DNA of 64,000 bases from Polyangia bacterium (GTDB lineage: Bacteria; Myxococcota_A; Polyangia; JAAYKL01): positions 1 through 64,000 of the forward strand of contig JBNKCR010000007.1 in NCBI GenBank assembly GCA_050287845.1, in the 5' to 3' direction. How positions within the stretch are numbered: position 1 is the stretch's first letter; the number at the start of each line of letters is the position of its first letter. The notes beneath the pieces were generated by a model that saw nothing but the letters and a program-made list of their open reading frames with translations, was not told the DNA's origin and did no database searches. A program made the translations under genes and the position numbers. Below are positions 44,186 to 55,918 of this stretch, piece after piece.

Positions 44186-44623
44186 ATGAGCAAATTCGTT
44201 CTCGACGAAAGACTGTGCGAAGATTGCATCTGGTTGATGCAATCGGAGAATATCCACATCCTGCTGATGAACAACTCCCTTGTGCCCTGGTTCATCCTGG
44301 TGCCGCAAACCTCTTCAATTGAGCTGCATCACCTGCCTGCTTCCCAGTTTGATAACCTGATGTCCACCCAACTGCTGCTCGCCAGATTCGTCGAATCCCA
44401 TTTTACCATCGATAAAATCAACATCGGCGCCATTGGGAATGTGGTCTCCCAACTCCACGTGCATGTCATCGGCCGATGCAGAGACGACCATTGCTGGCCC
44501 AACGTCATCTGGGGCAATCCCAAAAAAACGGCATATACTGAAGAACGCATCAGGGATATCCAGCAGATGCTGGTTGCCTTCTGCAAAGAGAACAATCAGG
44601 CGTCTGCGACAATCTCCCGGTAG
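44186..44623 (+). CDS. HIT family protein
   Basis: PWFILVP, KINIGAIGNVVSQLHVHVIGR, WPNVIWG. Confidence 0.92.
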   Translation: MSKFVLDERLCEDCIWLMQSENIHILLMNNSLVPWFILVPQTSSIELHHLPASQFDNLMSTQLLLARFVESHFTIDKINIGAIGNVVSQLHVHVIGRCRDDHCWPNVIWGNPKKTAYTEERIRDIQQMLVAFCKENNQASATISR

Positions 44624-46452
44624 GTTTCTGAAAATTCTTTTCGGGCGATACGGTAGATTTCCATTTTGTCAGGCAGAGGCAGCGTGGTGACCAGCATGTC
44701 GCCTTCGGCCACCACCTGGGCCTCTCCCCAGGGTGCCGAAATGTAGAACGCGTCTTCCTGCCCAAAGAGACTGAGCACACCACGGTCCACGGGGATGCCC
44801 CGCACTTTACCAACGGGTTTGTACATTCCCCAGCCTTCCTCCTGCGACGTCATCAATTCGTAGCGTTTGGCGAAGGTGGATTCGTTTACAATGTACAATT
44901 CCTTTGCTCCGGTCTGGTTCTGCACCACGTAATCGCCTGCCCTGGCGGTGTTCACCGTTTCTCTTCCAGATTCCACCACCGATGCCACCACTTCTTTCGG
45001 CATTGCCCGGCGCGCACGCACTTTAAGGAACTTTTCGTAATTCTTGCCGGTGGATTTCATCAGTTCAGAGACACTGGACACCACCGCTTTCTGAGAGATG
45101 CTGCAGTACGCTTTGAAATCATCGATAATCCGGATGAACGGCCCCCGTTTATCGGTCGGAACGGGTGAAACCAACATTTCGAACAGTTCAATGCACTGGG
45201 CATATTCCCAGTTGGCAAGGGTTTCCGGCGACGCTTTTTCCAGCAGCACACTGGCATCACGTTCGTTCTGTTGATGAAACGCCACCATCATTCGCGCGAT
45301 GGTGGTCCATCTGTCCACCCTGTTCAGCAGGCGTTTGCGTTCGGTAATCCGCAGAATATGAGTGGCGATGTCGGCTGCTCGCCCGACATCGGTGGCATCG
45401 TTTCTCTCGGCGTACAGGGCCAGCAGGTGGAGCGCACAGCGATACTCATTCAAATCCAGCAACATGCCCTCCTCATAGTGGGCAATGGCGGTATTGAGGG
45501 CGCGTTTTCGTTTGGGAAGGTTTTCGAGTTGCTGATACTCCTGTTTATGAAACATCCCCAGAAGACGACATCGCTCGCTGGTGCGACCAAACTCCTGATT
45601 GAGCATTTCAATCTGTGCAATGGCCTTCGCGGTTTCGCCCAATTTGCTTCTGGCCCACGATGTCTGTTCGATGAACCAGGGGCGCCTGGGGATATCCCCC
45701 GTCAAGGTGCTATAGAAATCCACCACAGCCCGCCATCCCAGCACATCTCTGACCAGCTCAAACAGCTCCCGTACACAATAGGCCGGAAGACTGGATACAT
45801 TGTGATTGGCCAGAATATCCCTGGCGGACTTTCTGGCCGACTCAATGTTGATGCTGATTTGATGTTTGCACGCGGCAAGGTCTGTCTGAAAGCGACGAAG
45901 CGCATCCCGGGTTTCCCGCAAGTCACTGCTCTCCCCCCGTGCCAGCGTTTTCCCGTCCAGCAATTCCCGCACCGGATTCTGCGCTATATCAAGGTGTATC
46001 AGCGCCTCCCGGATTTGCGCTCTCACATCGCTGTAGTTATCATTACGAACCGCCTCCCGGCTGAGGGAATAAGTGACCCGGCGTATCTGTTCCAGATCAA
46101 ACACGGGCCGCGCCCAGTCTGCAGCCAGCAGCAGACACCCTTTTCTGCTACCCCCATGCCGGAGTCCAATCTCGTAATACACATTGGCATTGGGAATTGA
46201 AATGTCGGAAAGCACAATGTCGGCAAGCATCAACTGGGCAACCATGTCCCGCACGATCAGCGACCCCTCCTGCTCGTCTGCCCGAACCGGAAGATACCCC
46301 TCGGCTTCCAGCGCCGGGCGATATCCCTGTTGCCAGAGTTGGTCAAAATCTATCTCCGACGGCGCCAGGACGTCGCCAGCCCCTGTTTTCTTTTTACCAA
46401 ACGGCATCACCACAAACGCGATTTTCAACGGCTGACCGACCTCATTCATCAC
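44596..46452 (-). CDS. DRHyd/NDT-like (DUF4071, ASK/MAP3K TRAF-binding-like) + TPR-S + tandem PGDYG-like domain protein
   Basis: AFVVMPFG...RAD...ADIVLSDISIPNANVYYEIGLRHG; TPR-S-like LLGMFHK...AIAHYEEG...DRW; two C-terminal Y-x-K/P...V-R...GD-Y/M...Y...F...Y repeats; GGGAG RBS. Confidence 0.75.
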   Translation of the reverse strand: MMNEVGQPLKIAFVVMPFGKKKTGAGDVLAPSEIDFDQLWQQGYRPALEAEGYLPVRADEQEGSLIVRDMVAQLMLADIVLSDISIPNANVYYEIGLRHGGSRKGCLLLAADWARPVFDLEQIRRVTYSLSREAVRNDNYSDVRAQIREALIHLDIAQNPVRELLDGKTLARGESSDLRETRDALRRFQTDLAACKHQISINIESARKSARDILANHNVSSLPAYCVRELFELVRDVLGWRAVVDFYSTLTGDIPRRPWFIEQTSWARSKLGETAKAIAQIEMLNQEFGRTSERCRLLGMFHKQEYQQLENLPKRKRALNTAIAHYEEGMLLDLNEYRCALHLLALYAERNDATDVGRAADIATHILRITERKRLLNRVDRWTTIARMMVAFHQQNERDASVLLEKASPETLANWEYAQCIELFEMLVSPVPTDKRGPFIRIIDDFKAYCSISQKAVVSSVSELMKSTGKNYEKFLKVRARRAMPKEVVASVVESGRETVNTARAGDYVVQNQTGAKELYIVNESTFAKRYELMTSQEEGWGMYKPVGKVRGIPVDRGVLSLFGQEDAFYISAPWGEAQVVAEGDMLVTTLPLPDKMEIYRIARKEFSETYREIVADA

Positions 46453-46476: not shown

Positions 46477-46504
46477 AATATATCACTCCCCGGGGGACCT
46501 TCAA
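46477..46504 (-). promoter_or_regulatory. Putative sigma70 promoter for the DRHyd-TPR-S gene
   Basis: Minus strand TTGAAG-N16-TATATT with extended -10 TG, about 25 bp upstream of the start codon. Confidence 0.5.
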
Positions 46505-46773
46505 CCGGTTTCTGAGAAGCAGCTGCCCAATGTACCGTGATCCCACCTGGTACAGCGCCCCGTAGGTTGGGGACCAGATCACGCAGGGCCAACCGCTGAG
46601 GGCAAGACGCGCTGACGAAGGACTGGCAGCGCCAATTCAAGGAGGCGCAACGCAGCCATCGGTGATTGGAACAAGTGAGATGGTCCCCAACTTATGGGAA
46701 GCTGTACTCGGCGATATGCCGGCGCATTGGCGAAAATCTGACCGAGAGCGGTGAGCACGGGTGGGGGTTCCCG
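46491..46773 (+). ncRNA. Unassigned structured RNA candidate (about 285 nt)
   Basis: Nested helices 46491-46506/46759-46773, 46527-46537/46720-46730, 46550-46556/46701-46707, 46559-46576/46681-46698 (18 bp with 2 G-U), tandem GA/GA, 46579-46582/46675-46678; G-U wobbles favour the + strand. Confidence 0.55.
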
Positions 46774-46807: not shown

Positions 46808-48625
46808 TCAGATGGACAACGTGGCGCCGGCGGTGGCGGAAACAATCTGCTTCACACATTCGGCGTCGTCCGGCTGATAGGAATAGTTGGGGTGTCCTGC
46901 GGGCGCTGCTCCGGTGGATTCCCAGTCATCGGCGTTGGCCAGTGTATCGTCTGAAACCGACCAGGTAATGCCCGCCCCCACATAATTGTCCCGCAGATCC
47001 CAGTATCCCGCGACATCGCTGTATCTGGACGTAATGGGATTTTCGCAATATTCAAAATAGTTCGCTTCCACCAGTGCAATGCCCCCCATGCGCACGTTGA
47101 TGCCGCTGCTCAGGATTTCATTGTAATAGTTGTTGAACAGATGCGTAAAACCGAACCGTTGCAGCGGCGTTCTGGAAACCACATTGCTGTACCAGTTGTG
47201 ATGAAATGTTACATACCGCTCGGTGGGGGCACCACTGCTGTCAGTGGCATCGTCATCGGTGTGTCCAATCAATCCTGTCTTCTGGTGATCGTGCAGGTGA
47301 TTCCACGAAATGGTAATATATCGCGCCCCTTTCTTTATATCGATGAGACCGTCAAACTCTGTATCCCCTGCACCGTCACAGTCGTCCCGGGTGGAACTGA
47401 ACAACTCATTATGATGAATCCATACATTCTCCACATCACCGTTGGTGCCATTGCCTTCCAGGGTAATCGCATCGGAATCGCCGCCCCCGGGCAAAAGACC
47501 CATTGTCATGTTACGAATGATTACGTTTTTGGCCCGGTTGACCTTGATACCAAAATTGGCACTGGACCCGGCCGTTCCCTCAAAGGTTACATTTTCCATT
47601 TCCTTAATCTGAAGAATACGGGCATCTTTTGAATGTTGCGCACAGACATCTGTAATCGAGGAAAAATCGAATTTTCCGTTATACCGAATCACCAGAGCCT
47701 CCCGGGAACCATTCTTGAAGGCATCCCTGTAGGCGGCCAGTGCCGATTCCGCCTGCTCAAAGCTACTCACTACTACGGGACTGGCATTGCCGCCGCCTGT
47801 GGTATTTTTTCCGTAGCCAGTAGGCCCCGTGGGTTCCGCGGGAACCGTGCAATCCGCCAGGGGATTGGTGTCCTCTTCACCGGTATCCGGCCCGGACCCC
47901 GTGTCGGTATCCGTATCGGTATCTCCATCATTGCCACAGGTGCCAGCGGCCACACCGGGGCCAGTCACACTCAGACTGTCTATATTGGCCAGACCAGCGT
48001 CCGCAGCAGCACTGAGTTCAATGAGATGTGTGCCTGCCTCCACGGTAAGCGTATGGGACATAATATCCCAGGTTGTCCATCCGCCGGTGGAACTGAAAGC
48101 AATGGTATTGGCAGGCGCCCCATCCAGCATCAGTACCGCGACCCGATTGCCCTCTTCGAGAGAATAGCGAAATGTCAGTTCAAGGTCTCCAGCGGTGCCC
48201 ACATCCACCGACCAGACGATCCCGGCCCCTGCCTCATTGTCTGCATTGATATATCCCGCCCCCTTATACCCGCTGTGTTCGGTCTCGATGTCACCTTTAA
48301 AATCGCACACATCCCCTTCTTCGAAAACCACACTCGATGCATTCGCGTTGCTACCCGTATCTGAATCCCCAGCGCTATCCGAGTCGGTGTCATTGTCCGT
48401 ATCCGTATCGGTATCGCTATCCGCGTCGCTATCCGTGTCCGTATCTGTATCCGTATCGATGTCCGTGTCCGTGTCCGTGTCCGTGTCCGTATCCGCATCC
48501 GTATCCGTATCCGTATCGGCGGTCCCGGTGCCCTCTGTATCGTCACCACCAGACGGCTCGTCGTCACAGGCGAAAAGAATCATTCCTGATATAAAAATCA
48601 GCAAAACAGAAATTCGGGGTCTCAT
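46808..48625 (-). CDS. Pectate lyase (PL1) lipoprotein with Asp-Thr linker and CBM35/CBM6-like module
   Basis: Lipobox LFAC; DTDT linker; EHSGYKGAGYIN...TGGWTTW...NIDSL CBM; TTGGG, NVIIRN, VWIHHN, DGLID, TISWN, TFHHN, SRTPLQR, NNYY. Confidence 0.92.
   Translation of the reverse strand: MRPRISVLLIFISGMILFACDDEPSGGDDTEGTGTADTDTDTDADTDTDTDTDTDIDTDTDTDTDSDADSDTDTDTDNDTDSDSAGDSDTGSNANASSVVFEEGDVCDFKGDIETEHSGYKGAGYINADNEAGAGIVWSVDVGTAGDLELTFRYSLEEGNRVAVLMLDGAPANTIAFSSTGGWTTWDIMSHTLTVEAGTHLIELSAAADAGLANIDSLSVTGPGVAAGTCGNDGDTDTDTDTGSGPDTGEEDTNPLADCTVPAEPTGPTGYGKNTTGGGNASPVVVSSFEQAESALAAYRDAFKNGSREALVIRYNGKFDFSSITDVCAQHSKDARILQIKEMENVTFEGTAGSSANFGIKVNRAKNVIIRNMTMGLLPGGGDSDAITLEGNGTNGDVENVWIHHNELFSSTRDDCDGAGDTEFDGLIDIKKGARYITISWNHLHDHQKTGLIGHTDDDATDSSGAPTERYVTFHHNWYSNVVSRTPLQRFGFTHLFNNYYNEILSSGINVRMGGIALVEANYFEYCENPITSRYSDVAGYWDLRDNYVGAGITWSVSDDTLANADDWESTGAAPAGHPNYSYQPDDAECVKQIVSATAGATLSI
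48366..48543 (-). repeat. 6-bp-period Asp-Thr/Ser coding repeat in the pectate lyase linker
   Basis: (GAYACG)n-type run on the minus strand. Confidence 0.9.
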
Positions 48626-54895: not shown

Positions 54896-55918
54896 ATGAA
54901 AATCAAAGAGAATCAACTGTTTCCCTATGCCCTTCTGGGACTGGTCATGATGCTGACAGTGGGATGCACCGATTCCAACGACAACACTGCAAATAACGAT
55001 TCCGAAAACAGCTCTTCTTCAGATACTGTCAACGACACGGAATCGACCAACACGGATGATACCGGGACGAACACGGAAAACGACACGGGCCCGGACTCGC
55101 AAACCGGCTCGGAAACATCGTCGGACACGGATTCTCCCACCGACAATGAATCGGAGTCGGACTCCCATTCGGAAACAGACACGGATACCGCCTCCGATTC
55201 AGCCACTGGTTCAGACTCTGATCCTTTCCCGGACACCGATACCATTACGGATTCAACGGAAGAAACAGACTCCGGTACCCACACCGATTCTGAAACCTCT
55301 TCAGACACAGCCGCTGACACAGGCACCGATACTGGGTCGGATTCAGTGACCGATACAGAATCGGATACCGACAACCCGAATCCATGGGGATTCACTGTTT
55401 CAAACCCCAGCACCCATACTCTGCATTGTGACGATCCTGCAAATATATTCGATGGAGAAATTGAAGTATCCGATCGTCACTGGCTCTGTACTTTCAAAGA
55501 GGGAAGCACAGAGGGCGTCCTGTTTATTCAGGCCATTCCCGAAACCTGCGTTGTCATGATGAGCCCCCTGATAGAGTACAGCATCGGTGTGGCTGAAATT
55601 TCAATCGATGGCAACCTGTTTCAGCTCGACGATGTGGCCTATGATTCCGGGGGAAACCATCTCAACGATTCTCTTGGATTTACCTACAGTAACCGCAAGT
55701 ATCACTACGAGCATTCGTCCTATGGTGTGGGGTATCGCAGTTGCCAGAATATGGACTGCGCAAATGTCAGCAATCTGAACGACGATGTTGTGGAAAACGG
55801 TTGTACCTGCGATCGCACCCGTCCCATCGTGTGCGTAAAACAGGCAGCTGACGGCAGCTTCCCTCCCCTGGTCGACACCTTCAAAGTCTGCGAGACCGAC
55901 CCGGATTGCGGCGATTGA
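54896..55918 (+). CDS. Lipoprotein with Asp/Ser/Thr-rich stalk and Cys-rich C-terminal domain of unknown function
   Basis: GGAGG RBS before ATG 54896; lipobox TVGC; about 135-aa acidic linker; about 180-aa domain with about 10 Cys. Confidence 0.8.
   Translation: MKIKENQLFPYALLGLVMMLTVGCTDSNDNTANNDSENSSSSDTVNDTESTNTDDTGTNTENDTGPDSQTGSETSSDTDSPTDNESESDSHSETDTDTASDSATGSDSDPFPDTDTITDSTEETDSGTHTDSETSSDTAADTGTDTGSDSVTDTESDTDNPNPWGFTVSNPSTHTLHCDDPANIFDGEIEVSDRHWLCTFKEGSTEGVLFIQAIPETCVVMMSPLIEYSIGVAEISIDGNLFQLDDVAYDSGGNHLNDSLGFTYSNRKYHYEHSSYGVGYRSCQNMDCANVSNLNDDVVENGCTCDRTRPIVCVKQAADGSFPPLVDTFKVCETDPDCGD

Follow-up and report, generated by a model that had tools for sequence, protein, structure and literature searches.

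ERIC (also called IRU or RU-1) is a 127-bp enterobacterial MITE that is non-coding and forms a rod, and we take it to be the same element as MITEEc1. In the part of bioRxiv 2024.01.18.576219 that was available, MITEEc1 is named as IS630-class, and a census found 97.4% of MITEs to be conserved only within genera. For RUP of Streptococcus pneumoniae, mobilization by IS630-Spn1 through matching ends has been proposed, and RUP and the Correia/NEMIS MITEs give long stem-loop transcripts, use TA targets, and are genus restricted; no cross-phylum core is reported for them in the available part of that source (PMC2229807). The REP/RAYT and TIR/TIRYT systems are also small palindromic repeats near gene ends (available part of PMC3733652). 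A further candidate relative is Pcar_R2001-R2021 of Pelobacter carbinolicus (PMC3543383 Additional file 2, available in part), which is given there as alignments with no mechanism stated. By eye, it resembles the element described below in being a dispersed rod-like repeat and in having a purine-rich hairpin enclosed by a CAAGG…GACGC bracket.

The locus compared here lies in a 64,000-nt window (contig JBNKCR010000007.1, positions 1 to 64,000 of the forward strand, assembly GCA_050287845.1); coordinates refer to this window, and the genome it comes from (G000) is called the window genome. Positions 46550 to 46707 are a copy of a repeated 158-bp MITE that sits between unrelated genes and was probably moved in trans by an IS630 transposase (Table 1). 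Judged against the available parts of PMC2229807, PMC10969869, PMC3184786, and PMC2267715, the element behaves like RUP, Correia, and ERIC. It is short, non-coding, and intergenic with 27-bp imperfect terminal repeats, which are among the features by which MITEs are recognized. The window genome holds five full copies that are 92.5 to 100% identical by BLAST, together with several partial or worn copies and one 33-bp miniature; the miniatures found to lack the core are single copies. All full copies end at the same bases, their flanks are unrelated (12 to 25 identical of 59/66 positions), and the other full copies adjoin unrelated genes, mostly at 3' ends when open reading frames (ORFs) are read by eye.

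Some copies are flanked by a short target duplication, and an empty site was identified. Perfect 3-bp TNA duplications flank three of the five full copies, one copy has TTA/TAA, and the window copy has CTG/TCG; reading by eye, perfect duplications were found in 9 of 21 GTAC-ended elements, and the remaining imperfect ones could reflect mutation, recombination between copies, or mis-assembly. One contig of sequencing run X3 passes directly from 46544 to 46706 apart from one other letter, skipping 46545 to 46705 for a net 160 bp missing and no GTAC left. This empty allele is a single contig at depth 5.8, with the joint present in one of four sequencing runs examined. The X3 strain differs at 34 of 543 bases of the neighboring gene (about 94% identical) and keeps the TPR-S gene, and the empty allele indicates that the two flanks are truly adjacent in it. 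A TA duplication with GTAC as part of the target was ruled out, since the empty allele has no GTAC.

Table 1. Features of the MITE locus and its neighbors in window coordinates
Feature	Position	Strand	Evidence or comment
TPR-S/PGDYG-like protein, 618 aa (neighbor)	44596..46452	-	Pfam TPR-S, E 1.2e-10; bystander
Sigma-70-like promoter match for TPR-S gene	46477..46504	-	About 45 bp outside MITE; consensus match only
Host flank with previously proposed outer helices	46491..46546		In empty allele; not common to other copies
Left target triplet CTG	46547..46549	+	Differs from right triplet in window copy
MITE, family A of window genome, 158 bp, end-to-end rod fold	46550..46707	+	Copies, empty allele, z -10.2
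Left terminal inverted repeat, IS630-type	46550..46576	+	22/27 and 21/27 identical to IS630 ends in G035 and G050 (counted by eye)
Conserved core, about 54 nt: AAG/AAC loops, stacked tandem G·A, apical hairpin	46602..46655	+	Alignment A1, pair counts, model R1
Right terminal inverted repeat, imperfect	46681..46707	-	Differences give G·U pairs on + strand
Right target triplet TCG	46708..46710	+	Kept in empty allele
Host flank outside element	46711..46773		In empty allele; not common to other copies
CBM6/35 and pectate lyase (neighbor)	46808..48625	-	MITE 100 bp past its stop

The TPR-S gene beside the insertion is a bystander. Its product had been described from sequence as DRHyd-TPR-S-PGDYG; the TPR-S assignment holds, the PGDYG match lies below the Pfam cut-off, and no DRHyd family match and no NCBIfam or PADLOC match to the protein appeared in these scans. 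For its N-terminal domain, searches of Pfam, NCBIfam, and PADLOC all came back without a match. A 54%-identical orthologue occurs in one of three congeners (G003), in a different gene context. The promoter that had been placed over the 5' end of the element exists as a sigma-70-like match (1 found versus 0.4 expected by chance) but lies about 45 bp outside the MITE. Elsewhere in the window, the proteins at 48195 to 48560 and 54925 to 55413 are secreted and contain long linkers of Asp-Thr/Ser repeats, a type common across the window genome.

Of special interest for mobility is whether autonomous elements share the ends of the MITE. The 27-bp end was present in four of five genomes searched, with 110 occurrences in one of them (G054). 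In G035, window-type ends bound a 1,269-bp element with TTA/TTA flanks whose ORF matches NF033545 (IS630) at 168 bits, and in G050 a window-type end closes a similar ORF at 172 bits (cut-off, 100 bits). A transposase of this type was not found in the window genome (best tblastn E value, 0.75; assembly 96% complete in 159 contigs). The canonical IS630 target duplication is TA. The target of this IS630 partner is instead 3 bp, not the TA duplication of an IS630-type MITE, and tandem junctions between MITEs likewise carry 3-nt spacers. Window-type ends in G054 also bound 195- and 258-bp MITEs (L052, L055, L065, and L074), with G·A-rich centers that are related but rearranged and that model R1 matches only in part.

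Other families in the window genome join the same kind of center to other ends. Family B has the same core, and its ends match those of an ISAzo13 element at 18 of 20 positions by eye (NF033519, 368 bits). That element (G000:C119:30168-31362, L089) has TTA/TTA flanks, and its ORF stops at 303 aa with the rest in another frame. For family C, no autonomous partner was found in the window genome, and an end match on C46 was discarded as a lone repeat beside an unrelated gene. Families B and C occur in tandem with a 3-nt spacer at G000:C129:69400-69730 and C54:1-300; tandem MITEs likely stack because each end recreates a C-TNA-G target. The terminal repeats of families A and B thus match IS630 and ISAzo13, respectively, yet the MITEs encode nothing and the autonomous elements are without the core. 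Model R1 detected no full core inside the three autonomous elements searched, and as these move without it, the core is not needed for transposition.

The core is widespread. In the window copy, the model R1 match spans 46590 to 46667, and relatives match mainly at 46598 to 46661; the repeats that hold these matches are equally long but have different ends. The strict core pattern returned at least 120 loci. The 80 titled records among the matches listed come from Myxococcota, Gemmatimonadota, Pseudomonadota, Actinomycetota, Planctomycetota, Elusimicrobiota, Omnitrophota, and Acidobacteriota, some of these phylum names being our assignments from class names, and at least eight phyla carry MITEs with the core, in about 29 end types. 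Terminal repeats could be called by script in 100 of the 120 matches listed, and many of the 20 without them are cut by contig ends. Using model R1, 35 cores in at least three families were counted in the window genome, and cores were present in 37 of 121 genomes sampled from its phylum. A search of viral contigs with the strict core pattern gave no matches. Four loci (L278, L280, L287, and L290) have a core without clear terminal repeats, two of them with tandem partial repeats, and long Gemmatimonadota forms (L130, L159, and L182) carry a 3'-arm insertion with a TTGACA hexamer, a possible promoter.

ERIC and the window element are both rod-forming, with an inner CAAGGC…CAACGC bracket and a tandem G·A below an apical hairpin; three Escherichia coli K-12 copies with the bracket resemble, by eye, the ERIC consensus of Table 1a in the available part of PMC2759123. 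They differ in length (127 versus 158 bp), in the longer interior of the window element, and in their borders, where ERIC has terminal TA and the window element has a TNA target of 3 bp. The bracket pattern was not found above control (4 versus 8 matches). Of the three ERIC copies, one reached 15.5 bits (E 0.13) with model R1, short of the similarity sought, and the other two gave no match; since the model barely scores them, the element is not classed as ERIC. The two have a common plan and are possibly homologous.

Published catalogs gave no closer counterpart. Motifs Desulfotalea-1, Solibacter-1, Nitrosococcus-1, Rhodopirellula-1, and Soil-1, as far as they are given in the available part of PMC2864571, look unrelated, and four core words searched in the supplement of that paper gave two chance matches, although gapped alignments can hide matches. 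The core had no match in the Geobacter bemidjiensis supplements searched, which excluded files 13 to 15. No published description of a shared core was found in a search that left out the supplements of PMC11109978 and PMC5737381, which may hold the motif. A cross-phylum family with a selected single-strand core is apparently undescribed.

Alignment of core-bearing elements was used to evaluate the structure of the center. Alignment A1 holds 42 of 47 non-redundant rows (L104, L105, L129, L164, and L212, most of odd length, were left out). Across these rows, 86.6% of cells in 16 named pairs are paired versus 72.9% after shuffling, two-sided changes occur in 12 of the 16 pairs, none of 500 shuffles reaches the observed pairing, and all slid controls are lower. 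Three tandem G·A pairs are separated by single C-G pairs, which flip to G-C in two rows, and the outer tandem G·A becomes Watson-Crick in 6 of 42 rows, the window copy among them. The search pattern itself partly fixes the conservation of the letters inside it; the apical and flanking stems lie outside this pattern. In the window copy, the 7-bp GUACAGC helix, 2x2 loop, 18-bp helix, tandem GA/GA, and UCAC/GUGA reported in the preliminary description are all present, with a helix pair probability of 1.0. The apical hairpin GCGCUG/CAGCGC of that description, by comparison, is absent from the minimum-energy fold and is incompatible with the fold that covariation supports.

Mismatches between the arms show which strand is folded. 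In 54 elements, the arms differ by 201 G·U versus 75 A·C and by 216 A·G versus 44 C·U, and RNA folding favors the core strand over its complement in 53 of 54 (mean, 15 kcal/mol), as DNA folding does in 49 of 54 (mean, 6 kcal/mol); these pair and strand counts overstate independence, because elements and rows are related. From the G·U excess over A·C and the covariation of the core, it follows that selection acts on the folded + strand, as the preliminary description had proposed from the arm differences in one copy. One strand of the center is thus selected to fold, either as RNA or as single-stranded DNA.

The position of the core within the element is also fixed, at about 53 nt. Measured from the 5' end of the strand that carries it, the core starts at 45 to 63 nt in 96 of the 100 bounded elements among the matches listed, with a mode of 53 to 56 nt that includes a few target bases, whereas the 3' arm is longer than 100 nt in 34 of the 100. 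All six long elements with a second core, which represent about two families, have it on the opposite strand, 53 to 54 nt from that strand's 5' end. The fixed 5' spacing could come from common descent. Copies number one or two per closed chromosome, too few to reveal a replichore orientation bias. An HUH enzyme reading a single-stranded hairpin, as in REP/RAYT (available part of PMC3733652), would suit the spacing rule. The window family nevertheless differs from REP/RAYT in lacking a GTAG/CGTC tag and in having ends that match DDE-type insertion sequences, and an unsystematic search linked no tyrosine transposase to it.

These observations are consistent with the following mechanism. An IS630-family transposase would bind the 27-bp ends, and the element would insert at C-TNA-G-like sites, often stop codons, with 3 bp duplicated. 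The folded single strand, either DNA or element-borne RNA, would then be bound by a candidate factor that may raise the element's own copying or let the element take on new IS ends. We found no factor binding the core, and give somewhat under an even chance to the reading that the folded strand is bound in this way to the benefit of copying or end exchange of the element, not of the neighboring gene. A wider version is speculative and, in our estimate, rather unlikely to hold in full: a cross-phylum MITE superfamily, possibly including ERIC, would be built on a tandem-G·A single-strand motif, with a factor reading the motif about five helical turns from the 5' end of the strand; this would allow the motif to gain and swap ends of different IS families (IS630, ISAzo13, and others), spreading as a transposase parasite.

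A possible alternative, to which we assign a substantial minority of our confidence, is that the core acts in host transcripts, where the rod in read-through mRNA would set the decay or termination of the upstream gene in the manner of ERIC. The advantage of the core strand is clearer for RNA than for DNA folding, as counted above, and gene 3' ends make up 31 of 42 called flanks in the window genome. Yersinia ERIC is described as altering mRNA stability via RNase E in an orientation-dependent way (available parts of PMC2229807 and PMC10969869). A full copy is also present in one 219-nt contig of an RNA library, but this contig has depth 2, is strandless, comes from another locus, and is possibly DNA. 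Against such a role, the folded strand has no preferred orientation relative to mRNA: no clear sense bias was seen in co-directional contexts of the window genome (3 sense versus 2 antisense) or elsewhere (12 sense versus 17 antisense), numbers that are small and based on crude ORF calls. An mRNA role also leaves the fixed 5' spacing and the opposite-strand second cores unexplained.

Inheritance or other causes together make an improbable account of the core, and the specific version in which it has no present function is less probable still. One ancestral MITE would have spread horizontally while its ends were replaced by recombination with IS ends. The similar element length (157 to 160 bp) and layout across families favor such descent, and retrieval by pattern inflates the apparent conservation. 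However, the arms have become fully different, the ends of 117 loci among the matches listed falling into 29 clusters, yet compensatory changes occur outside the pattern, and the mismatch spectrum is strand biased.

The preliminary description had instead taken 46491 to 46773 as a single unit of about 285 nt, a standalone noncoding RNA with a switch that partners the adjacent TPR-S conflict protein. This 283-nt stretch folds at -145.8 kcal/mol, with a z score against shuffles of -8.2 on the + strand and -3.2 on the - strand. Its folding significance comes from the 158-nt center; the flanks joined without the center have a z score of -1.6, and 15 of 300 shuffles fold as well. The outer helices do add slightly more energy than random flanks (3.3% of 300 GC-matched random flanks equal it), but because this gain is near the random-flank level (p about 0.03 to 0.05), they are borderline to chance, and they are located in host flanks. 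The alternative pairing of 46542-49 with 46758-65, offered as a switch or pseudoknot, does exist as 8 bp but has an ensemble probability of 0, and 66% of 1,000 flank shuffles yield a helix at least that long. Absence from known RNA families was borne out: Rfam 15 covariance models at E values up to 10 gave no family matching the element and two chance hits, both outside it. Interruption of a 6S RNA (RF00013) by the MITE was rejected, as a profile of 27 6S sequences gave no match with or without the core. Two divergent 6S RNA genes, both intact, are present in the window genome (C19:7893-8064, L021; C148:99135-99323, L022), and two 6S matches also occur in 10 of 40 relatives searched. The flanks as a separate conserved hairpin were likewise set aside, none of three metagenome pattern matches being homologous.

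Despite the overall z score, the small excess in flank energy, and the persistence of the flanks in the related strain, the single-RNA reading is largely refuted and very improbable: the center is missing at the site in a strain that keeps the TPR-S gene, T replaces G at three positions of the terminal helix in that strain (the pairing partners are not visible), the flanks have a single weak match (E 0.0055) across 60 other genomes and only chance matches in metagenomes, the switch pairing has no weight in the ensemble, and the orthologous TPR-S gene in G003, the only one among three congeners, has neither element nor flanks upstream. Dispersed copies with target-site duplications, which the same description had listed as evidence against itself, were what the window genome contained. 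Co-occurrence of the element with TPR-S genes was not seen at the other four full copies, in the related strain, or in the congeners. The partner reading is therefore not supported.

The insertion at this locus is an ordinary MITE; the family is less so. Its core crosses at least eight phyla while the ends change, in contrast to the genus-bound MITEs of the census. Such elements pass folding and covariation filters, a caution for noncoding RNA screens. The idea of a factor bound to the folded core can be tested directly through the IS630 partner and the spacing rule. If the core has such a partner, this would explain why some MITEs, perhaps including ERIC, keep an elaborate strand-specific structure that is unnecessary for transposases.
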